Positions 3,234 to 53,451 of a stretch of DNA of 64,000 nt are shown one piece after another (position 1 is the stretch's first letter; the number at the start of each line of letters is the position of its first letter). Made by a program: the position numbers and the translations under genes. Below the pieces are notes generated by a model. The model had not been told where the DNA came from. It was given only the letters and a program-made list of their open reading frames with translations, and did no database searches. Source of the stretch: Bacteroidota bacterium (lineage in GTDB: Bacteria; Bacteroidota; Ignavibacteria; Kryptoniales; JAKASW01); contig JAJZVO010000019.1 in assembly GCA_021845665.1 (NCBI GenBank), forward strand, positions 919-64,918. Direction: 5' to 3'.

Positions 3234-3425
3234 CTACTTGAGGTCTTCGTACTTCGCATCCTCAATGTTCTTGCGGTCAATCTTTACTTCCTTCTCGCTA
3301 TGTCGCTGTTTTTCCTGACGTTTTTCGTAGTCACGTATGCCCCTCTGGACCGCGCCTTGGATGGCAGATCGAATGAATCGGTAGAGAGCATAGAAAAAGA
3401 AAATCCAGACCAGTGCTTCAAACAT
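3234..3425 (-). CDS. Small membrane-anchored hypothetical protein
   Basis: N-terminal hydrophobic helix, charged tail ending IEDAKYEDLK; TAATG overlap with upstream kinase stop. Confidence 0.6.
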   Translation of the reverse strand: MFEALVWIFFFYALYRFIRSAIQGAVQRGIRDYEKRQEKQRHSEKEVKIDRKNIEDAKYEDLK

Positions 3426-4084: not shown

Positions 4085-4596
4085 CGGTTCATCGCCGGAT
4101 ATTCATCCCGGAACCTGCGTACGCCGGAATTATCGGGACATTCCGCGAGAAGCCGGGCGACCGTCTCATGAAAGATCGGGTGTTCGAATTCCGGTGCGAT
4201 ATCGGCCAGTGGCTTCAACACGAAACGACGCAGGTGGGCCCGTTCGTGAGGAATAGTGAGCTTGTCCGAGGAAATGCTGAGGCCGTCATAGAATACAATA
4301 TCTATGTCAATTTCTCTCTCGCGCCAGCGGCCGCGATGGATCCGCCCCACGCCGGTTTCGACATTCTTTAGAGCCGAAAGAAGCTCCTCCGGCTCGAGTA
4401 AAGTGACGATGCCCGCAGCCATGTTTAGGAACGATGGTTGATCGAGTTCGCCCACCGGGTCTGTCTCATACACATGTGATTTCTTTAGCAATCTCACCCG
4501 CGCAATTCCAGCAATCGAGTCGATGCTTTTGTTCAGGTAACCGATCCTATCACCCAGGTTGGAACCGAGGGACAGATAAGCCTCAGACTCTTTCAC
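4081..4596 (-). CDS. folK: 2-amino-4-hydroxy-6-hydroxymethyldihydropteridine diphosphokinase
   Basis: YLSLGSNLGD, REIDIDI, LTIPH..AHLRRFVLKPL; GTG start at 4596 preferred over ORF-track start. Confidence 0.95.
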   Translation of the reverse strand: MKESEAYLSLGSNLGDRIGYLNKSIDSIAGIARVRLLKKSHVYETDPVGELDQPSFLNMAAGIVTLLEPEELLSALKNVETGVGRIHRGRWREREIDIDIVFYDGLSISSDKLTIPHERAHLRRFVLKPLADIAPEFEHPIFHETVARLLAECPDNSGVRRFRDEYPAMNR

Positions 4597-4975
4597 CTGG
4601 CCCTTTCCCGGCGCGCGACTCTTCGGTGACGAACTCGACAAAGTCCACGACACCTCCTACCTGAGGAGAACGCTTGCGGACTTTGACTACAACGTGGTCC
4701 AGGCATTCAAATTTCTGAAGGATAGTGCTTGCGATCTGCGCTCCAAGGGACTCGATAAGGTAAAATCTCTTTTCGACCACGAGCCCCTTTATCGATTGGT
4801 AGACCTTTTCATAGTCGACGGTGTCCTTGAGGCGATCCGATGCGGAAGCTTTTGAGAAATCTCCGAACATGTCGACGTCAACTTCGAATTTTCCGCCCGA
4901 TGCCTGCTCATTGGTCAGGACACCATGGTACGCATAGAACGTCGCGTTATTTAGGCGGACACATTGCTGCTTCAT
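4583..4975 (-). CDS. folB: Dihydroneopterin aldolase
   Basis: FYAYHGVL..E, DRLKDTVDY, LIESLG, VKVRK..P; adjacent to folK. Confidence 0.92.
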   Translation of the reverse strand: MKQQCVRLNNATFYAYHGVLTNEQASGGKFEVDVDMFGDFSKASASDRLKDTVDYEKVYQSIKGLVVEKRFYLIESLGAQIASTILQKFECLDHVVVKVRKRSPQVGGVVDFVEFVTEESRAGKGPGERV

Positions 4976-4986
4976 TGATTTTTTAG

Positions 4987-5015
4987 AATATATGGTCACG
5001 ACGAAAACTTTTCAA
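4987..5015 (-). promoter_or_regulatory. Putative sigma70 promoter for folB operon (TTGAAA-N17-TATATT)
   Basis: Read directly; ATG lies 11 nt after the -10 hexamer. Confidence 0.55.
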
Positions 5016-5299
5016 GGAATGCATTTACCGGAGCCGCCGGCATTTCCAATTTGATCGCACACGGAGAGAGAGACTGAAATGCCATCCCATTCAACAAGGT
5101 GCTTATTCGTAAGTTAGTCGCGCTTCATCCAGGTCCTCAAGACGCCTGTATTATACTTATCTTCCGATTCAACCGGCTTCACATCCAGGTAAAGCGCCGG
5201 TAATCGACGAAATCATGGGAGAGTTGCCGGTCTTAGGATAGCTTGATGGGGACGAATGGAGAGTTAAGTCTGATAGAGGTGCAGGGAAATACCGGTCAA

Positions 5300-5506
5300 T
5301 TATGGCCCGGTCCTCTTTCTTGTTTGAGATTTCTTCACTAATCGGTCATGAGGCTGATTTTCAAGTGCGTAAACTTTGATAAGGAGGAAGAACATGACTA
5401 TAAGGAGAACGACGATAAGAGGGAGAGCGAAGTTGAATCTATCTGTGAAAGAAGGGATTGCCGAAGCAAGCGAATCGGCAGCTGCATCGAGGACTAATGC
5501 AAACAT
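5300..5506 (-). CDS. 68-aa single-TM protein coupled to cytochrome b
   Basis: ATG overlaps cytochrome b TGA; hydrophobic stretch FALPLIVVLLIVMFFLLIKV. Confidence 0.55.
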   Translation of the reverse strand: MFALVLDAAADSLASAIPSFTDRFNFALPLIVVLLIVMFFLLIKVYALENQPHDRLVKKSQTRKRTGP

Positions 5507-6552
5507 CAGTGAACTTCCGTTGTGATGTACGCCATTACGGTCATGGTGACGAGGTAAACAATAATCGCAACGCCGAACAGAGTAAAGAACGTACTCTTTT
5601 CCCCGTTCGAGGCTTTCCGATCTAAGAACGGTACGAGCATCCAGATGATTGCGCCGAGAGTTATGCCACCGAGGCCGATTACATCCGGGAAGGTCCGCAG
5701 CGTTTGGAACACGAATAGGAAATACCATTCCGGTTTAATACCGGCTGGCGCCGGGAGGACAGGGTTGACCTTTGCGGCGAGTCCTTCGGGGAAGAGCGCG
5801 ACGAATGAAATAAGCACGGCAAGCGCACCGGACCAAACCGCCGCCTGGCGCATCATGAAGTTCGGGAAGAGTTTGGTTTCGTCTCTCGTCGACCGCTGAG
5901 ACAATGGAGTGCTCAGGCCGAGCACTTGGCTGAGGAAAACATGAATCGCTATGATGGTGAGCCACAATATCGGCAGCACGATTGTATGGAGCGTGAACAT
6001 TCTTGTGAGCGTAGCGGCGCCGACGTCAGCACCGCCGACCATGAGCCTGGAAATGAAATGGCCGACGAAGGGTACGTAGAGCGGCATGCTGGTCCCGATT
6101 TTCGTGGCGAAATACGACAGAGTGGTCCATGGGAGAAGATATCCGGTAAACGCCGACGTCAAAATCAGCGCAAGTATTATGACTCCGAGCACCCACATTA
6201 TTTCCCTTGGCTTCCTATACGCCTTCGTGAAGTAAGTCGAGAACATGTGGACCAGGACGACGGCGATCAGGAAATTAGCGCCCCAGAAATGGATAGATCT
6301 GATGAGCCATCCGTAATGGACTTTTTCCATGATGTAACGGACCGACTCATTGGCTTTCACCGGCGTGGGCGAATAGTAAAACGCCAGCATGATGCCGGTA
6401 ATAATTTGTATTGTCAGGACAAAGAGGGCGAGCCCGCCGAAGTAATACCAGAATGAGTGTTTATGCTGCGGGATTTTTCTTTGTGCAACCCAGGCTTGGA
6501 CAGGAGAAAAATCGATCCGGTCTTTTAGAAAATCGGCAGCTCGGCTCGTCAT
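5506..6552 (-). CDS. petB: Cytochrome b of Rieske/cytochrome b complex 1 (b6 + subunit IV fused)
   Basis: GWLIRSIHFWGAN..VH, GYLLPW, RMFTLH-x14-H heme ligands, IKPEWYFL. Confidence 0.93.
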   Translation of the reverse strand: MTSRAADFLKDRIDFSPVQAWVAQRKIPQHKHSFWYYFGGLALFVLTIQIITGIMLAFYYSPTPVKANESVRYIMEKVHYGWLIRSIHFWGANFLIAVVLVHMFSTYFTKAYRKPREIMWVLGVIILALILTSAFTGYLLPWTTLSYFATKIGTSMPLYVPFVGHFISRLMVGGADVGAATLTRMFTLHTIVLPILWLTIIAIHVFLSQVLGLSTPLSQRSTRDETKLFPNFMMRQAAVWSGALAVLISFVALFPEGLAAKVNPVLPAPAGIKPEWYFLFVFQTLRTFPDVIGLGGITLGAIIWMLVPFLDRKASNGEKSTFFTLFGVAIIVYLVTMTVMAYITTEVH

Positions 6553-6557
6553 CCGGA

Positions 6558-6998
6558 TCAAGCCAGTTGTTTCTTTACCGTCACGTAGATCTTATTCCCC
6601 TCGATGTCGACGTAATACACCGGAAGCGGTCTGGTGGCGGGCCCCTTCAGCACTTTGCCGTCGATATTGAAAATACTCCCGTGGCATTCACAAATGAAAT
6701 TGTCATCCTTCGACTGGAAGGCCACGGTGCATCCCATGTGTGTACACTTGGCGGAGAGAGAGGTATACTTTCCGTCGGGAAGGTGAACCAGCACCGCAGG
6801 TTTGTCCAGGAATTTGAAAAACTTTGCCGTGTTGAGTCCCATCTTATCCAGGGTGGTGACGAAAACCTTGTCTACTTCACCCAAAGCAACTGCGGGAGGT
6901 GTAAAGAATCGAAGGACAGGATAAACGATATAAGCAGCGATCACTGCTACTCCCGACGTGAGGACGCGATTCAAAAATTGTCTTCTGGATGTCGCCAT
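6558..6998 (-). CDS. petC: Rieske 2Fe-2S protein of complex 1
   Basis: Tat signal SRRQFL, CTHMGC and CECHGS boxes, GPATRPL. Confidence 0.93.
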   Translation of the reverse strand: MATSRRQFLNRVLTSGVAVIAAYIVYPVLRFFTPPAVALGEVDKVFVTTLDKMGLNTAKFFKFLDKPAVLVHLPDGKYTSLSAKCTHMGCTVAFQSKDDNFICECHGSIFNIDGKVLKGPATRPLPVYYVDIEGNKIYVTVKKQLA

Positions 6999-7098
6999 AC
7001 AGATTCACTAACAAGAAACCACGTGGTTATCGTTCCGGCTTTTGCGTTTAAAGTGCGGGAAAAGTTCCGCGGGCGACGCAAAACTTGCCGCTCCTCGT

Positions 7099-7998
7099 TC
7101 AGACTACAATATTCAGGCAGCGCGGTCGAATGCTCATTTCGAAGGACTCCACTCTCTCCGGAGGGACTTCGCCGTCGCGATGAATGGAGACGGGGATCTC
7201 GCTCTGTACACTTATAAGCTTCGCCCTTGTCATAGTCACTTCCGGATATTTGGCGTGTGTACCAGCAAGCACGCTCGGGATCACCTGTATGACACGTGGG
7301 ATTGATACATCGGAGACGATGCAGGCATCGAGCAGGCCATCGTCCAAAAGGGCATCGGGAGTGAGCAGGAAACCTCCGCCGGCAGAAATTCCATTCCCGA
7401 TCGCGGCCAGGTACGTTTTCCCCTCGACGATGCGTTCGTCAAGCCTTATCCGCATCTGAGCAGCCTTGTATCTGTAAAGAGTTCTGACGACCGAATAAAA
7501 ATACCGCGACAGCCCTCTCAGTCTGTGTACCCGGAGGCTTTCTCTCGCAACTTCCGCATCGAAGCCGATGCCTATCCCGTTCACGAAGATCAGATCGTCG
7601 TTGCTTATCGTGAGGACCCCGACGTCCAGGGCCTTTACTTTTCCGGCGATGAGGCGCTGAAAATAGTCATGAAGATTCTTCAACCTGCCCACCGCCCGTA
7701 TGAAGTCGTTCCCGGTGCCTGTAGGTATGACGCCCATCGCCGCACCAGAACGCAGGGTTCCGGCGGCGACCTCGTTCACAGTTCCATCTCCTCCCACTGC
7801 CACGATAATGTCGAACTCGGAGGAATGCTCCCTGGCAAGTTCAGTTGCATGCTGGGGAGCCTGGGTAATTTCCACGTCGAAGTTCATTCCTAATGTTTTC
7901 GCCAGCCGAACCACATGAGGAAGGATCCGCCTTGTCCTTCCATTCCCGGATACTGGGTTGACTATGAATTTCACCAATCTCTCGCCCGCTGGTCTCAT
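7099..7998 (-). CDS. Diacylglycerol kinase family lipid kinase (YegS/BmrU-like)
   Basis: IVNPVSG, AVGGDGTVNEV, IPTGTGNDF, GGGFLLTPDALLDDGLLD, HRDGE; ATGA coupling at 7998. Confidence 0.9.
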   Translation of the reverse strand: MRPAGERLVKFIVNPVSGNGRTRRILPHVVRLAKTLGMNFDVEITQAPQHATELAREHSSEFDIIVAVGGDGTVNEVAAGTLRSGAAMGVIPTGTGNDFIRAVGRLKNLHDYFQRLIAGKVKALDVGVLTISNDDLIFVNGIGIGFDAEVARESLRVHRLRGLSRYFYSVVRTLYRYKAAQMRIRLDERIVEGKTYLAAIGNGISAGGGFLLTPDALLDDGLLDACIVSDVSIPRVIQVIPSVLAGTHAKYPEVTMTRAKLISVQSEIPVSIHRDGEVPPERVESFEMSIRPRCLNIVV

Positions 7999-9263
7999 AC
8001 GCCCAGTGTTGCCCTTCTTTCTTTGGCGAGACGTATCGTTTCTGCGATACCGTGCCTTATCCTGAATTCTCTGCGATGTTTCAGGATTTCGAATGCAGTT
8101 AAAACGCCGAAGACGATCGATACTATGATCCTCGAGTTGTCTCCGACAATCGGAAGTGGCGGCATGAAAGTAAAATTGACGGGGTAAAGGAATTGTGCCA
8201 GCCACAACAAGAAAAGGACGATTGCATTCGCGCGCGTGAATTTCAGTTTAGCAAGCGTGGCACATCCGTAGAAAGTCATCATCATGGAAAGCAGTATTTC
8301 CTCCCTATGATGTACATCCAAAGGGATCGTGGACACTCTTCCCATGGATACCGAGTAGACGATCGGAATCATAGATACCAGAAGTGTCCACTGGTTTACC
8401 TTGCTGCTTATCATATTCAATAGCGCCATCGGTGCCAGTCTAATCGTCCTCGCCCAATAGAACGCGGTGACTTTTTCAGGAAACTCTGAAAGGAAGGGTG
8501 CAACCCACTGCACAAAGACAAACGTGCTTATGCCAAATGCGACCGAGACTTCTTTCATGCTGTTGAGGAAGGGATCGGCCACGGCCCACATCGCCAGTCC
8601 TCCCACAAGAAAGAGTATGAAGATCACGAGGCCTCTTTTCTTTCCGTTCCGGATTGAGACCAGTGAGCGCGACATAGCCAGAAGGTCTTCCTTCTTTTCC
8701 TCTTCTTCTTCAGGAAGGACACGCAGGATATACATATAGAAAATAAACAGAGCACCTAGAAAAATCCCGTCATAAACCTGGAGATCGCGTTTCAAAAGGA
8801 TGACGATGAAATAGAGAGAAGAAACGAACAAGGCAAGGACCTCGACTATATTCTCAGGCCTCAGGCGTATCGCGTCTATTTTTTTCCCGTTCTTCCACCT
8901 CGAGTACAGGTCCGCAGTGATGAAGATCAGCGGCCAACCGACGCCCATAAGCAGCCTGTTGGATCCGGTGAAGTTGGCCATCATGAGATTGATATCTTTT
9001 CGCCAGGCGATGACGGCCTCGACCATGAATTCAGGGACAACCTGGAGAAGCGCAACTAGGGCGACGGCCAGTCCCTGGCTTATGCTGAACTCGGCCGCCT
9101 CTGCCGCCCAGCTGATGATAAGGGCTGAGACTACGACGTTACTGAAACAGAGGAAAGCGACAAACCCCGCGGTATCGCTCGGAAACATATGCAGCCACAC
9201 GGAGACGACCACGCTGTAGAGCAACATAAAGATGAAATAGTAGGTATATCGTGATCCCGTCAC
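7995..9263 (-). CDS. Ca2+/cation antiporter (CaCA-like) membrane protein
   Basis: Alpha-repeat-like LQVVPEF..E and LSEFPE, ANFTGSNRLL, ISSKVNQWTLL. Confidence 0.75.
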   Translation of the reverse strand: MTGSRYTYYFIFMLLYSVVVSVWLHMFPSDTAGFVAFLCFSNVVVSALIISWAAEAAEFSISQGLAVALVALLQVVPEFMVEAVIAWRKDINLMMANFTGSNRLLMGVGWPLIFITADLYSRWKNGKKIDAIRLRPENIVEVLALFVSSLYFIVILLKRDLQVYDGIFLGALFIFYMYILRVLPEEEEEKKEDLLAMSRSLVSIRNGKKRGLVIFILFLVGGLAMWAVADPFLNSMKEVSVAFGISTFVFVQWVAPFLSEFPEKVTAFYWARTIRLAPMALLNMISSKVNQWTLLVSMIPIVYSVSMGRVSTIPLDVHHREEILLSMMMTFYGCATLAKLKFTRANAIVLFLLWLAQFLYPVNFTFMPPLPIVGDNSRIIVSIVFGVLTAFEILKHRREFRIRHGIAETIRLAKERRATLGV

Positions 9264-10273
9264 GAAATATGGTCCATCGCAAAATGCGGGATTCTCACCT
9301 GAGCCATATCGTGGTATCCGGGGGGAGACTCGAGGAAGTCGCCGATCTGGTTTAGTATCATTCCGACAGAAGCGACATCTCCCATAATACCATTGTTGAT
9401 GACGACGTTGACGGGAGGCTCTCCTTCGACGAAGACAGCATCGTATTCGATCGAGGCGTCGACCCGCATCGTCAGCTTGAAGTTGACGACTTCCCGCCCC
9501 CCTTTTTCCACGACGACCTCATGTCTCACGCCGACGACATGGTTTCTCGCGACGAACAGATCGTCGCCGTTGTAATCATGATCGGCCAGGACAGGTTGCA
9601 GTGTCGAATGTATGTCGTCGTAATTGATACCGAGGTAGTGAGCGACAAACTCCGCAGAATCTGTGAGCCCAATCGGCCCGAAGCGACCTGATCCAGCTCT
9701 CTCGAGAAATTCCTGCGATGCCAACCCGACTCCGAGCTTCCTTTGCAGGGCTAATCTGCGGCGGCTGAGGTTGACCATTCTTTCAGCCCTGATGCCGGAC
9801 ACTGAAATGCACGGAGCGGTGAGCATCAAGACAAGGCTGTCCATCACGAAGCCTGGATTGATGCCCGTGGCAAGGAGCCTCACCCTCTTTCGCTTTGCGA
9901 GCGCGTCGAGTCTTTTGAAAAGCGCGGGATCACGCCTCCGAAGAAAGAAGAGTTCCTCTGCAGTGGTCATCACGTTGTAACCGAGCTCCATCAAGCGAGC
10001 CACCTGTTCGCCGGCCTCCGGCAGGAAGGACCCTGCCGCATGAATGACGACATCGGCTTTCCTGCGTCTGAGGGAGGAAATCGATTCGGCTACCTGAAGA
10101 TCATAAACCTCTTTTGGTTCCACAAGCTCACCGATATCGACATTTGCCTTCTCAGGCGAATTATCGACACATCCGATCAGTTCGAATCGGTCGCCGTTTT
10201 TGAGAAGAGCCCTTGCGATATTCGTTCCTATCTCGCCGAGACCGAATTGTATGACTTTAATTTTCCTTTTCAT
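9260..10273 (-). CDS. DapB-like NAD(P)H-dependent oxidoreductase (2,4-diaminopentanoate dehydrogenase / native amine dehydrogenase family)
   Basis: Rossmann QFGLGEIG, TTAEEL, TGINPGFVMD signature. Confidence 0.75.
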   Translation of the reverse strand: MKRKIKVIQFGLGEIGTNIARALLKNGDRFELIGCVDNSPEKANVDIGELVEPKEVYDLQVAESISSLRRRKADVVIHAAGSFLPEAGEQVARLMELGYNVMTTAEELFFLRRRDPALFKRLDALAKRKRVRLLATGINPGFVMDSLVLMLTAPCISVSGIRAERMVNLSRRRLALQRKLGVGLASQEFLERAGSGRFGPIGLTDSAEFVAHYLGINYDDIHSTLQPVLADHDYNGDDLFVARNHVVGVRHEVVVEKGGREVVNFKLTMRVDASIEYDAVFVEGEPPVNVVINNGIMGDVASVGMILNQIGDFLESPPGYHDMAQVRIPHFAMDHIS

Positions 10274-10979
10274 CCGTCTTCGTTCTGGTTTGAATCTCAT
10301 GCACGAACATTTGGGTAATCACGGTAGGCCTGGTAATAGCAGCGCCGACGACGACCGAATAGGCACCGAGTTCGAGCGCGTGGGCAGCTTCTGCGGGAAG
10401 AAGAATTCTCCCCTCGGCAATTACCGGTACCACGAGAGATTCCGAGAGCCTTTCGATTAAATCAAAGTCTACGCCTTCCCTCGCTTTCGAGAAGGTTGCC
10501 GGCGTGTAGCCAGAGAGAGTTGTCGAGACGAGATCCGCTCCCAATTCGGCTGCCTGGACGCCCTCCTCAAATGTGGATACGTCTGCAAGGAGGAGCGTGC
10601 CGGGATGATCGGTCCTCACGCGCTTAAGAAACTCGAAGCCGGTCAAACCGTTTGGCCGGACTCTCTCCGTCACATCCAGCGCAATGATATCGGCTCCCGC
10701 TTCTATAACGTCGTTCACGTCCTTGAAGTCGCGAGTAATGAGAACGGATCCGTCGTCGTAACCTGATTGTATCAAACCGATGACCGGGATTTGTACTCTT
10801 CCCTTTGTCGCCGTGATGTTATCTTTGCCTTCCGTCCTGATCCCGGCTGCTCCGCCAAGCTGAGCCGACAAGGCGAAAATCGAGATATACTCCGGACTAT
10901 TAAACGGATCCGTCTCATCGAACTGGCACGAGACAATCAGACCTTTCTTGACATTTGCTATAGAGTTAAGATATTCCAT
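10257..10979 (-). CDS. nanE: N-acetylmannosamine-6-phosphate 2-epimerase homolog (catalytic Lys appears replaced)
   Basis: GLIVSCQ, GAAGIR, IALDVTERVRPNG, STTLSGYT, AEGRI, VGAAITRP. Confidence 0.85.
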   Translation of the reverse strand: MEYLNSIANVKKGLIVSCQFDETDPFNSPEYISIFALSAQLGGAAGIRTEGKDNITATKGRVQIPVIGLIQSGYDDGSVLITRDFKDVNDVIEAGADIIALDVTERVRPNGLTGFEFLKRVRTDHPGTLLLADVSTFEEGVQAAELGADLVSTTLSGYTPATFSKAREGVDFDLIERLSESLVVPVIAEGRILLPAEAAHALELGAYSVVVGAAITRPTVITQMFVHEIQTRTKTDEKEN

Positions 10980-44100: not shown

Positions 44101-44637
44101 ATGGAAAACTCAGAAGAACCCAAAATCCCGGAACAGCACGACCCATCCCGCAGGTCTTTTCTCAAGATCGGGACGGGGGTCATCGGAGGATTTGCGACGC
44201 TCATCCTCGCAGTTCCATTTTTGGACGCTCTCTTAAGTCAATCTTTGCGAATAAAGATTGGAAAGTTTGTAAATGCAGGTCCCGTTTCTTCAATCTCCGG
44301 CAATAATCCTCAGAAGGTCTTCTTCGACGAGCGCGACCGGGATGCATATATTGAAGAGGTAGAAAGGCGGGACGTATGGGCACTCAAGCACGGCGAAAAC
44401 AACGTTACCGTGTTCTCACCGATTTGTCCCCATCTGGGATGCCGCTACAACTGGCACCCCGAACGCGATGAATTCATCTGCCCTTGTCACGGCAGTGTTT
44501 TCGCCAAGGACGGAAAGGTTCTCCACGGTCCGGCCCCACGCTCACTGGACACTCTCCCGACAAAAATTGAGAACGGCGAATTGTACGTTAAGTGGGAACG
44601 TTTCAAGCTCGGTGTTCCTAAGAAGATAGTGGTATAG
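44101..44637 (+). CDS. Rieske 2Fe-2S protein of complex 2 (QcrA-like)
   Basis: Tat SRRSFLK, CPHLGC and CPCHGS boxes, GPAPRSLD. Confidence 0.93.
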   Translation: MENSEEPKIPEQHDPSRRSFLKIGTGVIGGFATLILAVPFLDALLSQSLRIKIGKFVNAGPVSSISGNNPQKVFFDERDRDAYIEEVERRDVWALKHGENNVTVFSPICPHLGCRYNWHPERDEFICPCHGSVFAKDGKVLHGPAPRSLDTLPTKIENGELYVKWERFKLGVPKKIVV

Positions 44638-44651: not shown

Positions 44652-46682
44652 ATGCTATCAAATATTCAAGAGTGGATCAACGATCGGTGGCCTGTGAAAG
44701 AAGTGTGGAAGGCCGCCACCGAGGAGGAAATTCCCGGGGGTTCCAGCTACGCATATGTTTTTGGAAGTGCCACACTATTTCTGTTCTTGCTCCAGATTGT
44801 CACAGGCGTCTGGCAAATTTTTTACTACGTTCCAACGACTGACCATGCATATCAGTCGCTTTCGTATCTGAGGATATCAGTCCCGTTCGGGTGGCTGATA
44901 CACGGTCTTCACTACTGGGGAGCAACGGTGATGGTTATTCTCGTTGCCGTTCATCTTTCGCGAGTGTACATCTGGGGAGGTTACAAGAAGCCAAGAGAGC
45001 TCACCTGGCTCCTCGGTGTGTTTCTGTTGCTCTTCACGATGGCGATGAGCTTCACGGGAGCAGCCCTTCCCTGGGATGAGACTGGCTACTGGGCCTCAGA
45101 GGTAGGTACGAGCATAGCAGGTACGACTCCGATGCTCGGGAATATAGCCGAGAGCCTTTTACGCGGCGGTGCGAAAATGGGACAGCTTACATTGTCGCGA
45201 TTCTTCATCCTGCACGTCGCAATAATCCCGGCGATTCTTCTCGCATTCATTGCGCTTCATCTCGTAGCCTTTCGAAAGAAAGGGAGCGTGGGACCATGGG
45301 AGGAGTCGAAACGGAAGCGCAGCGGATCGTTCTGGCCCGATCAGGTCTTCAAGGACGCCTTCTTTTTCACGATAATACTGCTTGCTTTGATCGCGCTGGC
45401 GGCATTCCTTGCACCGCCATTCTCCGGACCAGCCGACCCGATCGACACGACTTTCCAGCCCAAGCCTGAGTGGAACTTCCTGTTTCTCTACCAGGCGATA
45501 AAGGCATTCCAAGGTCCGTGGGAGCCTGTCGGCACAATTGGTATCCCGACGGTTCTTTTCGCGTTCCTCTTCTTGCTTCCGTTCTTCGACAAGAATCCCG
45601 AGCGCAGTCCCCGAAAACGACCTATCGCAATGTTGATTGGATTGGTCATCGCCGGCGGAATAACGACGCTGACCATATCCGGGTACTATAGCCACCCGGG
45701 TGCTAAGCAGAATGGCGCGACGGTAGCGGCAGCGTCATCAAAGCCTGGAAAGACAGCAAGCGTCGAGACCGTCGTAGCGAAACAGCCCGAACTTCCCCCG
45801 CTCTCTCCAGCTCAAAAGGCAGGAGCTGAAAAGGGAGCAAAAGTTTTCGCGACGATGGGATGCACAGCCTGCCACACCGTTAACGGTGTCGGCGGACATG
45901 TAGGGCCCGATCTATCCGGAGAAGGTCTGAAAGCCCACTCGATTGCATGGCTGATGGCCCAGATTCGCAATCCGAAATCTCATGATCCGAAGACGGTTAT
46001 GCCGCCATTCACGATGCTGAGTAACGTCCAGGTCGGCGAACTCGTGGATTATTTGACCAGCCTTCGTAGCAAGCCAGTACCGGCAGCCGCTCCTTCCACG
46101 TCCGTTGCTGCTAAGACACCACAGGCACGGCCCGCAAACGTCAGGGTCGTTCAGCTGCCGTCAGATGTAGGCGAGCCTGGGCTTGCGGCCAGCATGATCG
46201 GCAACGTCGAGCATGGTAAGAAATTGTTCGATGCGAACTGCGCAAGCTGTCACGGTGTTGAAGGAAAAGGTGGAGTACCCAATCCCGGTTCTTATCTAGG
46301 AACGGTCCCCGCACTTAATCCTGTGAGACCTGAGTTGTTCAGTAAAGATCCGGCAGTATTCGCGGACAATCTGGACCGTTTTATCGAAAATGGCGCGGCA
46401 CCCCCTGGACCGAGTCCGCAGAAGGCTATGGCCCCCATGAGCATGGTGGGCTACGGCAAGACTCAGTCTCTTACCCAGCAGGAGATATCGAACATAATTG
46501 CATACGTAATGAGTCTTAACGGCGTCAACAGGGCCAAGATTCTGCACCCCGGGATTGCCCCGAAAACATTTTTCTTTCTGGCTTTAGGAATATTCATTGT
46601 ACTTTGGCTTATCCTCGGCACCTTGCGATTAGTTTCCTCGCAAGGAAAGACCGATACGTCGGCCGACTCCGAGAAGAAATAG
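44652..46682 (+). CDS. Cytochrome b + subunit IV + diheme cytochrome c fusion
   Basis: GWLIHGLHYWGA..VH, RFFILH-x14-H, PKPEWNFL, CTACH and CASCH, Ala/Pro/Lys linkers, C-terminal TM anchor. Confidence 0.92.
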   Translation: MLSNIQEWINDRWPVKEVWKAATEEEIPGGSSYAYVFGSATLFLFLLQIVTGVWQIFYYVPTTDHAYQSLSYLRISVPFGWLIHGLHYWGATVMVILVAVHLSRVYIWGGYKKPRELTWLLGVFLLLFTMAMSFTGAALPWDETGYWASEVGTSIAGTTPMLGNIAESLLRGGAKMGQLTLSRFFILHVAIIPAILLAFIALHLVAFRKKGSVGPWEESKRKRSGSFWPDQVFKDAFFFTIILLALIALAAFLAPPFSGPADPIDTTFQPKPEWNFLFLYQAIKAFQGPWEPVGTIGIPTVLFAFLFLLPFFDKNPERSPRKRPIAMLIGLVIAGGITTLTISGYYSHPGAKQNGATVAAASSKPGKTASVETVVAKQPELPPLSPAQKAGAEKGAKVFATMGCTACHTVNGVGGHVGPDLSGEGLKAHSIAWLMAQIRNPKSHDPKTVMPPFTMLSNVQVGELVDYLTSLRSKPVPAAAPSTSVAAKTPQARPANVRVVQLPSDVGEPGLAASMIGNVEHGKKLFDANCASCHGVEGKGGVPNPGSYLGTVPALNPVRPELFSKDPAVFADNLDRFIENGAAPPGPSPQKAMAPMSMVGYGKTQSLTQQEISNIIAYVMSLNGVNRAKILHPGIAPKTFFFLALGIFIVLWLILGTLRLVSSQGKTDTSADSEKK

Positions 46683-46705
46683 TCCTTTCTTCAATCCCCG
46701 CGAAC

Positions 46706-46736
46706 TCACATGCCTGGTTGACAGCCAGGCATGTGA
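46706..46736. terminator. Perfect 12-bp inverted repeat between convergent respiratory genes
   Basis: TCACATGCCTGG-TTGACAG-CCAGGCATGTGA; no U-tract. Confidence 0.45.
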
Positions 46737-46909
46737 CAGCGAGGAACACTCCCGATACTCTTCCTTCCCTAGATCAGACCCGATAACAACTATCCAAAGG
46801 GTTTTACGCTGTTGACTGCCGTCCGATTTATCGGATGGCTGCTTTTGATACAGCCTCCAGCGATTGTCGGCGACATCGCTGCCCTTTTTCAACTCCAGCC
46901 AAAGCTGAC

Positions 46910-48298
46910 CTACTTCATGTAGGTAGCGGTGCCGTTCTGCTCTTCCGTCTGATAAACATTCATAATGTATTGCGCCACGGCTTTTACCTGGGCCTCATTT
47001 AAACCTTGCTTCGGCATGGGCGGATATCCTTGCAAGACTTGCCGCGGGTTCATTATGAAGTTCTCCAGGTCATCCATTCTTCCTTCGTAATTGCCAAGCA
47101 CCATATTGTAGGCAGGTCCCACAAGCCTGCGATCGAATCTGTGGCAGGCGCTGCAAGTTTGCTTGTAAATATCTTCGCCATTGATCTTGGCCGTTTGTAC
47201 TTCAGGGAGCTCTGAGAGCATTTTGTCGTAATTATTGGCCATGAGCTGGTAGTGCGCCCGGTTAGATTGGCTGAATGAGACGCCCTTGGCTGTCATCCAG
47301 ACCCCGACCATTACGACAACACCGATAAAGGCATAGCTGCCGAGTTGGACTTTTCTTTGCTTCAACATTTGGAAGAAGAAATGCACGAGTATGAACACGA
47401 TCAAGAGGCCCAGCCCGGCAAGTCCGAAGACGGCGCCGTCTTCGGCAGCCGAAGGGACGAAGGTGAGATCGATAAAGATGATTAGAGGTTGGACGATTGC
47501 GAAAAGGAGCCCTGCATTCGTCGCAAACCTCTTTACAAACGAAGAGTATGCCTCGTCATTTGAGACGCCCAGTCCGCCGTCCCAAATATAGAAGAAGAAA
47601 AGGATGGCGGCACTCTCGATCACAACGGCGGCAGTGACGAAATGGATGAAACTCCAGATCGTTGTCCAGGAAAAGAGTACGGCAAACGCGCCGGCGTCTT
47701 TCATCCAGTCCTGGCTGTCCAGAGCCAGGTTAGAACCGCCCATGAACGCCCACATTCCGATCCAGAGCATAACAGTACCAAACAATCCCGCCCTTCGCCG
47801 CGTCTGGTGAGCGGAGATTTCCATAGCGTCGACATCAACGAGGCTCGCGTCGCCGATCTCAGATTTCTGGGACGACGTCAGTTTCTTATAAGATTCAATG
47901 AATCCTTCGAGCCTGAAACTGTACCTATAGGCAATCAGGAACATGAAGCCGATGATGATGAGAATTGCCGAACCCGTTATGAAGTTCGTGACATCTGCCT
48001 TTGTATTATAAAGGAGCTCGGCGTAGATAAGAATTATAGTCACGATCGGAAGTCCCGCCAAAGCCGCGACGGCACCCTTACCCGGCAATGCCACATCGAT
48101 AAGATTCCTGGCAAATCGGCGGTATATCTTATTCCCTTTTTTCAATCCTTTGCGATTGAAGTAAAGCGACAAGGTAGAGCCGGTCGCCGCTATCGCCATG
48201 TATGTGACAAGCATGGTCGAGACAAAGGACAACAAATAGTAAAGAAGCGTAAGGCGTTCACCCGATTCGGGATTAACAAGGTTGTTTAGGAAATGCAT
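46910..48298 (-). CDS. Polytopic membrane protein with C-terminal monoheme cytochrome c domain
   Basis: ~9-10 hydrophobic segments then CSACH...VGPAY...YPPMP; starts 4 nt after heme O synthase stop. Confidence 0.85.
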   Translation of the reverse strand: MHFLNNLVNPESGERLTLLYYLLSFVSTMLVTYMAIAATGSTLSLYFNRKGLKKGNKIYRRFARNLIDVALPGKGAVAALAGLPIVTIILIYAELLYNTKADVTNFITGSAILIIIGFMFLIAYRYSFRLEGFIESYKKLTSSQKSEIGDASLVDVDAMEISAHQTRRRAGLFGTVMLWIGMWAFMGGSNLALDSQDWMKDAGAFAVLFSWTTIWSFIHFVTAAVVIESAAILFFFYIWDGGLGVSNDEAYSSFVKRFATNAGLLFAIVQPLIIFIDLTFVPSAAEDGAVFGLAGLGLLIVFILVHFFFQMLKQRKVQLGSYAFIGVVVMVGVWMTAKGVSFSQSNRAHYQLMANNYDKMLSELPEVQTAKINGEDIYKQTCSACHRFDRRLVGPAYNMVLGNYEGRMDDLENFIMNPRQVLQGYPPMPKQGLNEAQVKAVAQYIMNVYQTEEQNGTATYMK

Positions 48299-48302: not shown

Positions 48303-49310
48303 CTAAAGCCTCCATGGTGAGATCAATTTGAAAAGGATGTCCACTAGGACCAAAACAGTAACGGCCAACACATAAATATTTATTTTCATGAAAGCGGATT
48401 TATACGTTCGTTTGTCGCCGAAGTGTTTCACTACCGGCCAAGCCCCCATGCTCAGCCAGGCGCCGAGGACGAGAAGTAGTATTCCCGTTACCTCGCCCTC
48501 GACTACACCCGTCGTTATAAAAAGGACAGAAATGGCAACAAGAGCCAGCATCCATGCATAAGTGAAAACGGCAAATTTCTTTTCGGACAGGTGACTTCGC
48601 ATCGTTGGAAAACCGGCTCTCTCGTAATCACTGCTGTATATATCCATCAAGAGCCAGAAATGCGGGATCTGCCAGACGAAGAAGAACGAAGACACGACCA
48701 GGAGCTTCGGATCCACCAGGCTTCCGCCGGCAGCCGCCCAGCCCGCCATCACCGGTAGAGAGCCGACGAAAGAGCCGGGCACTACCGCGTAGGCCGTTTT
48801 CTTCTTGAGAGGTGTGTAAATGGCATTGTACCAAAACATTGCAAGCAATGAAAGCACCAGTGCCGGGAGGTTCCCCCAGGTGAGAGTCACAGCGGAGCCG
48901 GCAATGACAAGACCGATAAGCATGAGAAGTGCCGCGCGGGGAGAGACAGTTCCGGAAGGGAGCGGACGCCTTTGCGTACGGTGCATAAGAGCGTCGCTAT
49001 ATCGCTCCTGGTAATGATTAAGTACTGCCGATCCGCAGGCAACGAGGAAAATTCCTAATGAAGACATGACCATGCCGAAGGAGATTTCCCCGGATGCAAG
49101 GACGTAACCGAAAAGAGCCGACATCCCGACGAAGAATGTAATCTTTATCTTGACAAGCTCCGCGACGGCATTTGCGATTTCCTTCAGGTGGGCAAGACGT
49201 CCCACCTCAGGTAAGCTGAGGACGGCCGTGCCCTCCCTGCTGATTCCGGGCGAGTGTAAACCATCCACGGTTCTCATCGGCCGATTTTCATTTTGGTCAG
49301 TTCTGCTCAT
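48303..49310 (-). CDS. ctaB: Protoheme IX farnesyltransferase (heme O synthase, CtaB/CyoE)
   Basis: LNHYQE...DALMHRT.RRPLPSG, YNAIYTPLKK, GWAAA, FVWQIPHFW. Confidence 0.93.
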   Translation of the reverse strand: MSRTDQNENRPMRTVDGLHSPGISREGTAVLSLPEVGRLAHLKEIANAVAELVKIKITFFVGMSALFGYVLASGEISFGMVMSSLGIFLVACGSAVLNHYQERYSDALMHRTQRRPLPSGTVSPRAALLMLIGLVIAGSAVTLTWGNLPALVLSLLAMFWYNAIYTPLKKKTAYAVVPGSFVGSLPVMAGWAAAGGSLVDPKLLVVSSFFFVWQIPHFWLLMDIYSSDYERAGFPTMRSHLSEKKFAVFTYAWMLALVAISVLFITTGVVEGEVTGILLLVLGAWLSMGAWPVVKHFGDKRTYKSAFMKINIYVLAVTVLVLVDILFKLISPWRL

Positions 49311-49378: not shown

Positions 49379-50035
49379 TCAAAAATAGATCGTTGAATCA
49401 CCGAGCGCCACTTTCGGTTCGGCAGTGCTGCTCGATTTGATCCAACTGTCGAAGGTCGTATCAGGCAAGACGATCATTTTCGTTTTCATCAGTGAGTGGT
49501 CAAGCCCGCAGTATTGAGTGCAGACCACGTCAAAGACGCCGAGATGCTCCGGGTACACCACCATATGTCGAATCCTGTCGGGCAGCGCGTCCTGCTTTTC
49601 CCTGAACGCGGGGAGATAGAAGCTGTGGATCACGTCAAGTGATGTGATGAGGCAATCGATCGGCCTTCCCTTAGGAACATACAGGGTATCGCATCGCTTC
49701 CCGTTCATATATTCAAACGAAAAACTCCATTGTCGGGCGAAGACCTTGACCGGCATGGCATTCTTCGGGACGATGCGTATCTGCAGATATGCTTCCCATC
49801 CCACATAGAACATCGCGAGAACCAGAACTGTCGGAATAACCGTCCAGAAAATCTCTAGGGGGACGTTTCCCGGAATACTTGTGGCCCGTGGGTTCCGCTT
49901 ATGATTGTACTTAAAGACAAAGAACACCATTGTTGCGACAACTATCGTGAACAGGATCAGGCTGCAGATTACAATGAATCTCATCACGTCATCTACGGCC
50001 TGTGCGTGATTCAGTGCGTACGGCAATAATCTCAT
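49379..50035 (-). CDS. coxB: Cytochrome c oxidase subunit II (CuA, no fused cytochrome c domain)
   Basis: LEIFWTVIP, ARQWSFSFEY, DVIHSFY, CTQYCGLDHSLM. Confidence 0.93.
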   Translation of the reverse strand: MRLLPYALNHAQAVDDVMRFIVICSLILFTIVVATMVFFVFKYNHKRNPRATSIPGNVPLEIFWTVIPTVLVLAMFYVGWEAYLQIRIVPKNAMPVKVFARQWSFSFEYMNGKRCDTLYVPKGRPIDCLITSLDVIHSFYLPAFREKQDALPDRIRHMVVYPEHLGVFDVVCTQYCGLDHSLMKTKMIVLPDTTFDSWIKSSSTAEPKVALGDSTIYF

Positions 50036-50045
50036 TTTTTGCGCC

Positions 50046-50360
50046 CTATCTCCTGAAATAGACATCGGCAAATGTCAGGAGGAAAATCACCGAAAGTACT
50101 CCACCCGCGATTGCCACGAAGATTTTGAAAATTTTGTCCTCATACTTCACGTGCATGAAGACATTCACTACGAGCGAGGATTTAACGAGTGCTATGAGAA
50201 GCGCTATCACCAGAGTGAAAGCAGCGAGGTTAATTCCTGCGACGACCGCCGTGATCGCGGTAAGCGCCATCAAGGCCAGCCAAATGAGGACATATATTCC
50301 GTAGCTGGTAGGCGCGCCTTTGTGTTCCGTCAAAGTTTGCTGTTCCATCATTCTCTCCAT
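50046..50360 (-). CDS. Cytochrome c oxidase subunit IV (CtaF/CyoD-like)
   Basis: IALVKSSLVVNVFMHVKYE; TGATG coupling to coxC. Confidence 0.88.
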   Translation of the reverse strand: MERMMEQQTLTEHKGAPTSYGIYVLIWLALMALTAITAVVAGINLAAFTLVIALLIALVKSSLVVNVFMHVKYEDKIFKIFVAIAGGVLSVIFLLTFADVYFRR

Positions 50361-51004
50361 CAGTTAACCAGGTAAAATAGCGGGAACAAGAATATCCAAA
50401 TAATGTCGATCAGGTGCCAATAGAGCCCTGCTGCCTCCAGCCTCACTGAATCTTCCTGCGTGATTTTACCCTTGATTATGAAAATCAACATGACGGTAAG
50501 TAGCCCGCATCCGACCAGCACATGCAGACCGTGAAGGCCGGTCATCAGGTAATACATCGCAAAGAATAGTTCAAAGCCGCGAGGGTGTTTGAACAACATC
50601 GGAGACCCCGGGTAGATCCCTTCGTGGATTTCAGTTGACCACTCGACATATTTTATGACCAGGAATCCGAGTCCGAGGGCAATGGTTGAAGAAAGGAAAG
50701 TCACCGAGAGCCACTTCTTTCCTCTTTCCAGGGCAGTAATCGAAAGCGCCATGGTCAGACTGCTTGTAAGAAGGACCATGGTGTTGACCGTGCCGAACAA
50801 CGTATGCGTGTACATAGCGGCTTCGTGGAACTCCTTCGTATAGAAGTATCTGTACGCCGAGTACAGGAGGAACATGCCGCTGAACAAAAGAAGCTCCGTC
50901 ATGAGGAAAAGCCACATCCCCATCTTTATTCCATGAACGTCCTTCTTCGGGTGACCGGCGTGTCCAGTATGTTTTGCGGATTCAGGCAAGGAAATTTCAC
51001 TCAA
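50360..51004 (-). CDS. coxC: Cytochrome c oxidase subunit III
   Basis: GMWLFLMTE, NTMVLLTSS, TGLHGLHV, GLYWHLIDIIWIFLFPL. Confidence 0.93.
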   Translation of the reverse strand: MSEISLPESAKHTGHAGHPKKDVHGIKMGMWLFLMTELLLFSGMFLLYSAYRYFYTKEFHEAAMYTHTLFGTVNTMVLLTSSLTMALSITALERGKKWLSVTFLSSTIALGLGFLVIKYVEWSTEIHEGIYPGSPMLFKHPRGFELFFAMYYLMTGLHGLHVLVGCGLLTVMLIFIIKGKITQEDSVRLEAAGLYWHLIDIIWIFLFPLFYLVN

Positions 51005-52638
51005 CTTGTGAACGCCTCCTCGTGGTAATATGGCTCGTGGATGACTACTGGTTCTTCTTCAAAATTCTCATGTATCGGCGGAGAAGCCGTCTTCCATTCG
51101 AGGGTGGTGCCTCCCCAGGGGTTCGGGCCCACGCGCGGTCCTTTTATGGCACCGTGAATTAGATTGACAAACATGACTATCAATCCTGCAACCAGGATCC
51201 ATGACCCCGCTATAGAGATATGCTGAAGGGTTTCAAATTGCGGCAGGTAAGTAAAATAGCGTCGCGGCATCCCTTCATATCCCATGATGAACATCGGGAA
51301 ATAGAGGAGGTTGAATCCGATGAACATCACAAGTAAATCCCAGCTTGCGATCTTTTTGTCGTACATCCTGCCGAACATTTTCGGGAGCCAGTAGTGCAAT
51401 GCTCCGAAGAATATGAAGACGCCGCCCCCGAAGATTATGTAATGGAAATGGGCCACCACAAAATAAGTTGCGGTGAGGTGGACATCTGTCGCCAGTGATC
51501 CCAGCACAAGGCCGCTCAAACCGCCGATTGAAAACAAGACCATGAAGGCCATCACGAAAAGGAAAGGTGGCTGAGGGTCGATGGACCCTTTATACATCGA
51601 CGCAACCCAGTTGAACACTTTTATTCCGCTCGGAATGGCAACGATGAAAGTCAGGAATGAAAAGACCATATCCGCCTGCTGCGACATTCCGGCAACGAAC
51701 ATATGGTGTCCCCATACCAGATATCCGATGAAGGCAATGGCGAGACTGGACATCGCTATGGCTTTGTATCCAAAGATCGTCCTTCGGGTAAACGTGGCGA
51801 TTATTTCTGAGACTATGCCCATTGGCGGAAGTATCATTATGTATACGGCCGGATGCGAATAGATCCAGAACAAATGCTGGTACAAGACGGGATCACCACC
51901 GGCCGCCGCGTTGAATATACCGATACCGAATACCCTGGAAATAATTATCAGGAGGAGGGTGATCGCAAGGACAGGTGTAGCGATGATTTGCACCCAGGAC
52001 GTAGCGTAAAGGGCCCAGACAAAAAGCGGCATTTTGAACCACGTCATACCGGGAGCCCTTAAGCGGTGAATGGTTGTGAGGAAATTGATCCCGGTGAGAA
52101 TTGACGAGAACCCGACGATGAAGACACCGAAGACTGCCACGGTCACACCTGTTGTCGTCCTAAGGCTATAAGGTACATAGAAAGTCCAACCCGTGTCCGG
52201 AAGACCGTTGACGAAAAGAGCCGTCAAAATCACCGCAGATCCTATAACGTACAGGTAAAAGGAAAAGAGGTTCAATCTTGGAAAGGCAACATCCTTTGCG
52301 CCGATCTGAAGCGGTAGGAAGAAATTGCCGAGCGTCACGGGGATTCCGGGAATGACGAACAGGAAAATCATTATGACGCCGTGGAGCGTGAAGAGGGCAT
52401 TATAGACTTCCGGGCCAAAAAGCTTGCCGCCGGGTGAGATCATTTCCAAACGGAGCAGGATGCCTAACAAGACGCCGACGGAAAAAAAGCTGAACAGCAT
52501 TACTGTGTACATTATGCCTATTCGCTTATGATCAGTTGAAAGGAGCCAGGCAGCAAGCCCCTTGTGCTTCCCGATGTTTTCCAGGTAACTTCCCTCCACG
52601 ACAGAAATGTCCTGCGGGGGCAATGCAATGTCAGCCAT
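51001..52638 (-). CDS. coxA: Heme-copper oxidase subunit I, A2 type
   Basis: STDHKRIG, TLHGVIM, DVAFPRLN (D-channel), YSHPAVY (A2 YS motif), WGHHMF, PSGIK (K-channel), AHFHY. Confidence 0.95.
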   Translation of the reverse strand: MADIALPPQDISVVEGSYLENIGKHKGLAAWLLSTDHKRIGIMYTVMLFSFFSVGVLLGILLRLEMISPGGKLFGPEVYNALFTLHGVIMIFLFVIPGIPVTLGNFFLPLQIGAKDVAFPRLNLFSFYLYVIGSAVILTALFVNGLPDTGWTFYVPYSLRTTTGVTVAVFGVFIVGFSSILTGINFLTTIHRLRAPGMTWFKMPLFVWALYATSWVQIIATPVLAITLLLIIISRVFGIGIFNAAAGGDPVLYQHLFWIYSHPAVYIMILPPMGIVSEIIATFTRRTIFGYKAIAMSSLAIAFIGYLVWGHHMFVAGMSQQADMVFSFLTFIVAIPSGIKVFNWVASMYKGSIDPQPPFLFVMAFMVLFSIGGLSGLVLGSLATDVHLTATYFVVAHFHYIIFGGGVFIFFGALHYWLPKMFGRMYDKKIASWDLLVMFIGFNLLYFPMFIMGYEGMPRRYFTYLPQFETLQHISIAGSWILVAGLIVMFVNLIHGAIKGPRVGPNPWGGTTLEWKTASPPIHENFEEEPVVIHEPYYHEEAFTS

Positions 52639-52641: not shown

Positions 52642-53451
52642 TCAGTTCCCTCCCTTGGCCTTTGCTTTCTTGAGTCTCTTTGTAGTCATAAGGAATAAGA
52701 TGAATGCGAGCATGAAGATAGTTGTTCCCCAGCCAACGACCGAAATGGCATCGAAAGAATAACCGGTCCCGGCGGCATCGTAGCTAAAACACAACTTCAA
52801 GACGTTTCCTATTATCGGAGCGAACGTGTTGTTTGCCGCTTCCATAATCGCCATCTGCACGTCGATCGGCGTGAAAGTCATCCCATAGATATACCTGGCT
52901 ATCTTCCCTTCCTTGCTTACGAAGATAAGAGCGGTGGGATGCGTGAACATGTCGTGCTTGTCCCGCATGAAATAGAAACCGACTTCGTTGGTAAGCTTGT
53001 GGATGGTGACGCTGTCGCCAGTCAGGAATCTCCATGCATTGTCCGGTATCGGGCGTCTCGCCATTTTCACGTACTGTTGTTTTTTTTCGAGTGCACGCGC
53101 AGGAGTGTCGTTCGGGTCGAAACTTATCGTCGCTATCCTGTAGTCCTTTCCAGGCATTTCTTTCATTTTTTCGACGACCTGCTGGATACCGCCGAACACC
53201 CTATCGCAGATGCCCGGGCATGTGTAATACCCTAGGTCGATAATCAGCGGTTTCCCATCAGATATTTGCGCCAGAGTTATCGGTTTGCCGTATTCATCCT
53301 TGAAAGTCAAATTCATGTCGATCGTCTTCCCGAGCTGCTGGACTATTCCCACATTAGGATGCGACGCATCTTCGGCGAACAGGGCTTTCACCGGAAAGAT
53401 AAGCGAGCTCAGCGCTGCAGCTATATAGAAAGATTTGAAAATCTTAGTCAT
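52642..53451 (-). CDS. SCO1/SenC copper chaperone
   Basis: YYTCPGIC CxxxC, WRFLTGD, FTHP, C-terminal TM. Confidence 0.9.
   Translation of the reverse strand: MTKIFKSFYIAAALSSLIFPVKALFAEDASHPNVGIVQQLGKTIDMNLTFKDEYGKPITLAQISDGKPLIIDLGYYTCPGICDRVFGGIQQVVEKMKEMPGKDYRIATISFDPNDTPARALEKKQQYVKMARRPIPDNAWRFLTGDSVTIHKLTNEVGFYFMRDKHDMFTHPTALIFVSKEGKIARYIYGMTFTPIDVQMAIMEAANNTFAPIIGNVLKLCFSYDAAGTGYSFDAISVVGWGTTIFMLAFILFLMTTKRLKKAKAKGGN

Follow-up and report, generated by a model that had tools for sequence, protein, structure and literature searches.

Heme-copper oxidases and cytochrome bd oxidases have been regarded as two unrelated superfamilies, each with subunits of its own. On the bd side, the closest described relatives of the protein considered here are OR-C1a and OR-C1b, uncharacterized cytochrome-c-linked bd-like oxidoreductases reported by Murali, Gennis and Hemp, who describe OR-C subunits as consisting of eight transmembrane (TM) helices followed by a C-terminal periplasmic heme c (bioRxiv 10.1101/2021.01.16.426971). 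On the heme-copper side, the CoxI subunit of the Melioribacter roseus oxidase reportedly shares 66% identity with that of Desulfovibrio vulgaris (PMC5492636), whose cc(o/b)o3 oxidase is reported to use hemes o/b (PMC5492636, PMC4383621). Here, we analyze a gene that brings elements of both sides together. It lies at positions 46910-48298 on the minus strand of a 64,000-nucleotide (nt) stretch of DNA from a Bacteroidota bacterium of the class Ignavibacteria (GenBank assembly GCA_021845665.1, contig JAJZVO010000019.1, positions 919 to 64,918), the whole of which is referred to as the window. The gene, for short X, encodes a polytopic membrane cytochrome c (P0001) and closes a heme-copper oxidase operon. 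Although its parts are of known kinds, X is novel as a combination of a scaffold assigned to the bd superfamily by fold and profile comparisons with a cytochrome c, fixed in a heme-copper oxidase operon.

Results

Conservation of gene X in one type of oxidase operon

A search with the membrane part of X alone (E<=1e-3, clusters at 50% identity) matched 262 clusters, almost all of them 420-490 amino acids (aa) in length and with one CxxCH motif near residue 370-385. Given this number of matches and their nearly uniform architecture, X is not a chance open reading frame. Conservation was scored in a 118-sequence alignment, to which all residue counts below refer. In a scan of species-representative genomes with a 13-sequence alignment, 307 of 331 candidate stretches encoded a relative of X, and the locus contexts were read from the best 80. 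These 80 loci come from metagenome-assembled genomes labeled Ignavibacteria, Ca. Kryptoniota or Bacteroidetes. In 78 of them, down to an identity of 29%, X is preceded by the gene order cytochrome c-SCO-CoxI-CoxIII-CoxIV-CoxII-ctaB, or by the part of it retained on the contig, and in the remaining two the contig ends just upstream of X. Co-occurrence with a cox operon, a check suggested by a first reading of the window from its letters alone (hereafter the original prediction), was thus found in all 78 loci that have upstream DNA.

The same association is seen at the genome level. Among 121 genomes sampled from the class, X is present in all 51 with a CoxI that shares at least 58% identity with that of the window, and the other genomes contained one contig-end fragment only; a sample of 151 genomes from the phylum yielded no X beyond the class. 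X is passed on as a constant element of a single A-type heme-copper oxidase operon of the Ignavibacteria and Kryptoniota-like Bacteroidota, an oxidase lineage that has been reported as A2, cc(o/b)o3-like. In two family-f8 genomes with readable loci (L095 of G109, 4551-10707; L097 of G125, 1954-8261), the operon has no ctaB and X directly follows CoxII. Since X stays after CoxII where ctaB has moved beside ctaA, it is tied to the cox genes and not to ctaB. The ctaA-ctaB pair of G109 and G125 lies elsewhere, and their X-type oxidase may use heme A. Alternative complex III (ACIII; ActC, fused ActDE and ActF) is encoded upstream of the X-type operon in both more distant members examined. However, no ActD was detected in the genome of the window, which has bc complexes instead; because X is kept in this genome, it is tied to the oxidase rather than to ACIII. 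Rieske/b-c and Cyc2 genes lie beside X in only the five closest of the 80 loci.

Operon types and the heme content of CoxII

Three types of A-type oxidase operon occur in the class, at times two in one genome (L138-L143, L084-L099). In the X type, in which CoxI is at least 58% identical to that of the window and the genes follow the order given above, CoxII (median length 220 aa) lacks a CxxCH motif in 72 of 72 cases, and X is present with its own CxxCH in all 72. The second type (CoxI 50-58% identical; order ACIII-SCO-CoxII-CoxI-III-IV) encodes a caa3-like CoxII of 309-373 aa with one CxxCH near residue 230, and X is absent from all six loci, which represent four families. X is likewise absent from the third type (CoxI 34-40% identical), usually ordered CoxI-III-II, with ctaA and ctaB adjoining. 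Among CoxII homologs from outside the class, the closest of the longer ones (42-51% identity) mostly contain two CxxCH motifs, with one of the five closest containing one; the two-motif pattern matches the cc(o/b)o3 enzyme of D. vulgaris.

The X-type operon encodes exactly two separate membrane-held monoheme cytochromes c, a tethered one at its start and X at its end. The c domain of X is ~28% identical to the c domains of the closest CoxII-cc proteins and resembles CoxII-fused c domains with an E-value of 5e-8, compared to 5e-3 for the tethered cytochrome, both values referring to a small database.

Expression of the homolog in Melioribacter roseus

In M. roseus, a cluster of seven genes (Mros0039-0033) comprises SCO, CoxI, III, IV and II, followed by 0034 and Mros0033 (PMC3534657, PMC5492636); by its position, Mros0034 is ctaB. 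The last gene product has been termed a "class I soluble c551/c552 cytochrome" and depicted as shuttling between ACIII and the oxidases (PMC3534657, PMC5492636). However, the proteomic supplement lists for MROS_0033 the peptide FLIDLTTFNK, covering residues 65-74 (PMC5492636), which fits a cytoplasmic loop motif of the X family (F62..LID..K74), and P0018 has ELIDLFTINK at the same place. As its peptide matches this motif, MROS_0033 appears to belong to the polytopic X family rather than to be a small soluble protein, and the published annotation is probably wrong. Database records label proteins of the family "cytochrome c". Like CoxI and CoxII, MROS_0033 was detected only in aerobically grown cells, with an exponentially modified protein abundance index (emPAI) of about 0.2, compared to 0.35-0.44 for CoxI/CoxII, and ACIII was co-induced (PMC5492636).

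Fold of the membrane domain

The membrane part of X matches nothing in Pfam, even at E<=10, or in NCBIfam, in keeping with the statement of the original prediction that X is not a standard oxidase, bc or ACIII subunit that could be named. A profile search of Protein Data Bank (PDB) sequences with X returned cytochrome c domains only, and the leads offered by a protein atlas were weak (at most 0.85) and were set aside. When an AlphaFold2 (AF2) model of X (mean pLDDT 80, pTM 0.70) was compared against solved structures, the top Foldseek matches were CydB and CydA of cytochrome bd oxidases (E 3e-4; target-normalized TM-score 0.59). Exhaustive comparison with VIA-align gave Z-scores of 24.1, 23.8, 22.9 and 22.7 for four CydA chains, the first being 5ir6_A with 304 residues aligned at a root-mean-square deviation (rmsd) of 3.4. 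CydB followed at about 20, ActC/ActF of ACIII at 16-18 and PsrC at 14.5; the next matches were unrelated helical bundles at 11.7 and below. The comparison with CydA, ActC/ActF and NrfD proposed in the original prediction was therefore apt, with the bd subunits scoring ahead of the rest.

Profile-profile comparison with hhalign connected the membrane part of X to OR-C1b (98.8%, E 4e-17, 304 columns) and OR-C1a (95.9%, E 5.5e-9, 205 columns), and OR-C1a to CydA (97.8%, E 1e-12, 292 columns). X and CydA, compared directly, gave 31% (E 5e-4, 59 columns), X and CydB gave no match, and among Pfam models neither PF01654 nor PF02322 matched X. As the direct comparisons are weak or empty, the link to the bd oxidases depends on the fold and, by transitive homology, on OR-C1 as a bridge. 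Taken together, the profiles and the model identify X as a member of the cytochrome bd superfamily, most similar to the "b" partner of OR-C1. To our knowledge, OR-C1 has never been biochemically characterized. No match to a characterized subunit with a known role, the finding that would have spoken against the original prediction, was obtained.

Judged from its alignment, X is not a bd oxidase, because it has neither conserved heme ligands nor a Q-loop. Within residues 1-360, no His, Met or Glu column that could provide a ligand is invariant; among the His columns, H15 is the most conserved at 68%, and X itself has Arg there. The TM6-TM7 loop, which corresponds to the Q-loop position in CydA, consists of 8 residues (281-288). 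The bd-like domain either lost or never possessed the b/d-heme ligands and the quinol loop. Conserved residues of the domain include Q94, P84, Y124, W198, Y309, P271 and P282, the Q94 column being conserved to 93% and occupied by Glu in X. The canonical cydAB genes of this genome lie on a different contig.

Gene structure, topology and cytochrome c domain

X starts with an ATG codon whose Met1 is invariant in all 118 aligned homologs, and its N-terminal segment has the family consensus M-x-F-L-x-x-L-V-x-P-Q-S-x-x-H (P10 in 105/118, S12 in 89/118 and H15 in 80/118 sequences, otherwise N, Q or R; R15 in X). The conservation of Met1 and of this segment confirms this start. Hydropathy and the AF2 helices agree on eight TM segments. 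Lys and Arg residues are distributed such that 21 fall in even loops, compared to 3 in the N-terminus and odd loops, which points to an N-out/C-out topology with a periplasmic heme domain, as required for c-type heme attachment. Pfam recognizes only the C-terminal cytochrome c (residues 373-448), passing the cut-offs of both PF13442 (30.6 bits vs 27) and PF00034 (31.2 bits vs 21.3), whereas the NCBIfam matches (c550/c551/CcoP) are weak and every one lies below its cut-off. With its single CxxCH, distal Met and Pfam scores above cut-off, the domain has the features of a class I cytochrome c. The coordinates of these elements and of the neighboring genes are given in Table 1.

The original prediction had described about 370 aa of TM helices with few His, followed by a His/Met monoheme domain, encoded 4 nt after heme O synthase and convergent with a cytochrome b-c fusion. 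This outline holds in each point: there are eight TM segments, five His residues in positions 1-360, none of them invariant, and a CSACH/Met428 heme site. At the junction, the ctaB stop codon is followed by CCAG and the ATG of X, with a GGAGG sequence inside the end of ctaB. The convergent gene ends at 46682, leaving a spacer of 227 nt. This spacer (46683-46909) contains two hairpin/T-run sites on the plus strand and one weak promoter-like site on the minus strand, and the region scanned around it contains three terminator-like sites vs 0.4 expected from shuffles. The operon of X encodes the sole heme-copper oxidase detected in this genome, which would terminate a putative Cyc2 iron-oxidation chain.

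Table 1. Gene X, its sequence features and the genes around it in the window.
Feature	Position	Strand	Evidence
Whole gene X, 462-aa polytopic membrane monoheme cytochrome c (P0001)	46910..48298	-	ORF and translation; homologs of 26-93% identity with the same architecture
Membrane domain, residues 1-360, eight TM helices, predicted cytochrome bd (CydA/CydB) fold, sequence nearest to OR-C1b, no conserved heme ligand	47219..48298	-	AF2 model, VIA-align, Foldseek, hhalign
Conserved, predicted periplasmic N-terminal segment, residues 1-18	48245..48298	-	column counts in 118 sequences
Linker helix and predicted periplasmic class I cytochrome c domain, residues 361-462	46913..47218	-	PF13442, PF00034; profile matches c551/c552/c555 PDB structures
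Heme c attachment motif CSACH (C382, C385, H386)	47141..47155	-	translation; invariant in 118/118
PMP motif containing Met428	47012..47020	-	
Met428, probable sixth heme ligand, in PPMP motif	47015..47017	-	translation; M in 116/118
ctaB (heme O synthase), 4 nt upstream of X	48303..49310	-	PF01040, TIGR01473
CoxII, 230 aa, CuA domain, no cytochrome c domain	49379..50071	-	PF00116, PF02790, TIGR02866; no CxxCH
CoxIV	50046..50360	-	Pfam COX4_pro
CoxIII	50360..51004	-	Pfam COX3
CoxI	51001..52638	-	Pfam COX1; only COX1-family gene found in the genome
SCO1/SenC	52642..53451	-	Pfam
TM-tethered monoheme cytochrome c, first gene of the operon, 236 aa	53610..54320	-	Pfam; CxxCH at residue 142
Rieske protein, convergent	44101..44637	+	Pfam
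Cytochrome b-diheme c fusion, convergent	44652..46682	+	Pfam; beside X in 5/80 loci

Divergent family members and associated genes

A few relatives of X depart from the common architecture. Five family members (P0027, P0086, P0097, P0102 and P0105) are about 355-368 aa long and lack a CxxCH motif, and in genome G129 the membrane part (C23:44671-45732) and an 80-aa c domain (C52:39508-39747) lie on different contigs; these cases may reflect either genuine splitting of the gene or breaks in the assembly. Second, far weaker matches to the X profile (G196:C10:98161-99105 and G160:C34:6744-7658; E 1e-25 to 1e-28, 334-353 aa, no c domain) may represent another bd-like "b"-type paralog, judging from their sequences. 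No paralog of X was found in its own genome. A record titled Bacillota bacterium MAG74 contains an X homolog that starts 300 nt from the contig end (L083, 300-1661), which likely reflects a binning error rather than gene transfer.

In the two ACIII-containing loci (L033:1778-2941, L008:1298-2479), ActD and ActE are fused, and ActF is followed by an extra tethered cytochrome c of 307-323 aa. A homolog of this cytochrome heads the operon in the window, without ACIII.

Discussion

Proposed role of X in the oxidase

We propose, with a probability of about one half, that X is a dedicated oxidase subunit supplying a c-heme that feeds CuA, with the bd-like bundle serving as a docking domain. The bundle would dock X in the membrane next to CoxI/II/III, and its c-heme would accept electrons from an upstream donor (ACIII for most relatives, either the Rieske/b-c complex or the Cyc2 chain for the present organism) and then pass them on to CuA. 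X would thus act in trans as a substitute for the c domain(s) that are part of CoxII in sister lineages. This proposal is supported by the fold and the periplasmic c domain of X, by its obligate presence, next to the cox genes, in the oxidase lineage whose CoxII is heme-free, by its absence from the sister operon with a fused CoxII, by the likeness of its c domain to CoxII-fused ones and by the expression of the M. roseus homolog. Several observations weigh against it. The association of X with the oxidase is one of strict co-occurrence and of co-expression in M. roseus, and the comparison of operon types is correlative and draws on genomes that are related to one another. The operon also encodes a second, membrane-tethered cytochrome c, which could by itself feed CuA. 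Moreover, X evolves fast, with a median identity of 33% compared to 64% for CoxI. Finally, eight conserved helices exceed the needs of an anchor, and the conserved residues hint at a further function of the membrane domain.

An alternative would be a role in oxidase assembly or maturation, with the c-heme acting as a redox center either in the handling of heme O, which X would deliver to CoxI or modify in the manner of heme A synthase, or in the periplasmic reduction or delivery of copper. X directly follows ctaB, at a median gap of about 21 nt across loci, and the only heme-copper oxidase of this genome (48303-54320) has ctaB, yet no recognizable CtaA, Cox11, Caa3_CtaG or SURF1 was found in the genome, which is 95.6% complete. 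In addition, X and CtaA are largely complementary in 37 genomes of the class (18 with X only, 14 with CtaA only, 3 with both and 2 with neither). However, this pattern is explained by the existence of two operon types, as the genomes with CtaA carry the oxidase whose CoxI is 34-40% identical. Genome G061 has X, CtaA and an X-type CoxI only, indicating that X is no replacement for CtaA, and we rejected a heme A synthase substitute as the principal role of X on these two grounds. Further points against an assembly role are that X remains with CoxII when ctaB relocates, that its membrane domain is devoid of conserved His or Cys, and that a His/Met-ligated c-heme is an electron carrier and not a catalytic heme. 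The abundance of the M. roseus homolog is of the order of that of structural subunits, and the related D. vulgaris enzyme, as mentioned above, is reported to use hemes o/b (PMC5492636, PMC4383621). A replacement of CuB chaperones by X was also considered and proved uninformative: Cox11 was found in 0 of the 121 class genomes, and Caa3_CtaG gave one weak sub-threshold match, irrespective of X. Their absence, being common to genomes with and without X, says nothing specific about X, which itself matches neither PF09678 (Caa3_CtaG) nor PF04442 (Cox11). CuB insertion in the class must rely on factors other than these. Thus, we do not favor a role of X in assembly and regard it as rather unlikely.

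The fold of X also raises the question of whether its helix bundle interacts with quinols, oxidizing menaquinol on the periplasmic side and sending the electrons via its own c-heme to CuA, so that complex III would be bypassed. CydA, ActC/ActF and PsrC, which share this fold, all interact with quinol, CydB-type subunits bind quinone, and the conserved polar or aromatic residues Q94, W198 and S210 lie near the periplasmic face of X. However, a Q-loop is missing, the loop between TM6 and TM7 having only 8 residues, the conserved His, Glu or Asp residues typical of quinol sites are missing, no quinol-site residue of the bd or NrfD proteins is kept, and there is no Fe-S or b-heme relay. Moreover, a quinol oxidoreductase is always at hand, namely ACIII upstream of X in both relatives examined and co-induced in M. 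roseus, and bc in the present genome. We regard such a quinol module as quite unlikely. The bd homology could also be taken to mean that X reduces oxygen or another small molecule with electrons fed via its c-heme, as proposed for the OR-C enzymes, whose description as eight TM helices plus a C-terminal periplasmic heme c X equals (bioRxiv 10.1101/2021.01.16.426971) and to both of whose OR-C1 subunits it is homologous. We consider such an activity extremely improbable, given that the membrane part has no conserved heme ligands, that an OR-C1a partner was found neither beside X nor elsewhere in its genome, and that X resembles the "b" subunit and not the catalytic "a" subunit. The original prediction had named X a candidate scaffold or quinone/cytochrome bridge in a new supercomplex. 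In a specific form of this idea, X would join the oxidase to the convergent cytochrome b-diheme c complex, in connection with the Cyc2 iron-oxidation island. While the genes indeed converge in the window, an arrangement shared by four to five close relatives, 75 of the 80 loci contain X without bc or Cyc2 genes, and its ancestral neighbor is ACIII. X thus predates the bc association and is independent of it; what is kept throughout is its position next to ctaB/cox, and a bridging function appears very unlikely.

It is conceivable, although we think it unlikely, that the bd-like bundle binds quinone or heme O/B and thereby provides the oxidase with a second activity, either menaquinol oxidation or a new heme-O-modifying or delivery chemistry that replaces CtaA-type functions. 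If so, X would be a functional hybrid of the two great oxygen-reductase superfamilies.

Significance

In the X family, a membrane domain of the bd superfamily, fused to a cytochrome c, was recruited into a heme-copper oxidase operon and is fixed there throughout a bacterial class. As the family is polytopic, electron transfer in M. roseus probably takes place within or between membrane complexes. Since M. roseus grows aerobically and makes an X homolog, these proposals are testable, and the X family offers a first functional approach to the OR-C1b proteins.

Comparison with known systems

As a membrane-tethered class I cytochrome c, X resembles cytochrome cy, the CcoP/CcoO subunits of cbb3 oxidases and Bacillus c550/c551. 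However, these proteins are held by a single helix or a lipid anchor, whereas X has a conserved polytopic domain. ActC/ActF and NrfD/PsrC have related helix-bundle folds, yet they score lower than the bd subunits, and PF03916, which detects the true ActC of related loci (1e-24), does not match X. No Fe-S subunit gene lies beside X in the window or in the related loci. X also differs from heme A synthase in that PF02628 does not match it and that it has no conserved His. CtaA structures are not among the listed fold matches of its model, which alone is not decisive. With CydA/CydB (5ir6_A, 7d5i_B, 9r2g), X shares the fold of two four-helix bundles, with ~270-300 residues aligned at an rmsd of 3.1-3.5; it lacks equivalents of the CydA ligands His19, His186, Met393 and Glu99 as well as the Q-loop.

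The closest likeness in sequence is to OR-C1b, which has eight TM helices, no quinol loop, a similar N-terminal segment and profile homology to X. Relatives of the window's organism encode OR-C1a-like proteins of 430-513 aa, with a weak PF01654 match over the first four helices only and a terminal CxxCH, each followed by a gene for a 368-385-aa polytopic protein without heme c or a Pfam match. Such pairs, found at L128:7960-10544 (G113, same genus) and at L129-L135, away from cox genes, fit the published OR-C1a/OR-C1b by their sequence features. X has the OR-C1 architecture of eight TM helices and a C-terminal periplasmic heme c. However, in these relatives OR-C1b has no heme c and always lies beside a Pfam-detectable OR-C1a, whereas X has a c domain as part of the protein, lacks an "a" partner and resides in a heme-copper oxidase operon, flanked in 78 loci by ctaB/cox genes instead of forming an adjacent a/b pair. 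No OR-C1a-type PF01654 match was found in its genome. The main text of the OR-C preprint does not mention relatives in heme-copper oxidase operons (bioRxiv 10.1101/2021.01.16.426971). The caa3 and D. vulgaris-type cc(o/b)o3 oxidases differ from the X-type enzyme in that their c domains are part of CoxII, whereas the c domain of X sits on a separate polypeptide with an eight-TM anchor of unrelated origin, next to a heme-free CoxII. What X would have in common with them is its proposed role, that of a c-heme held covalently at the membrane and feeding CuA.

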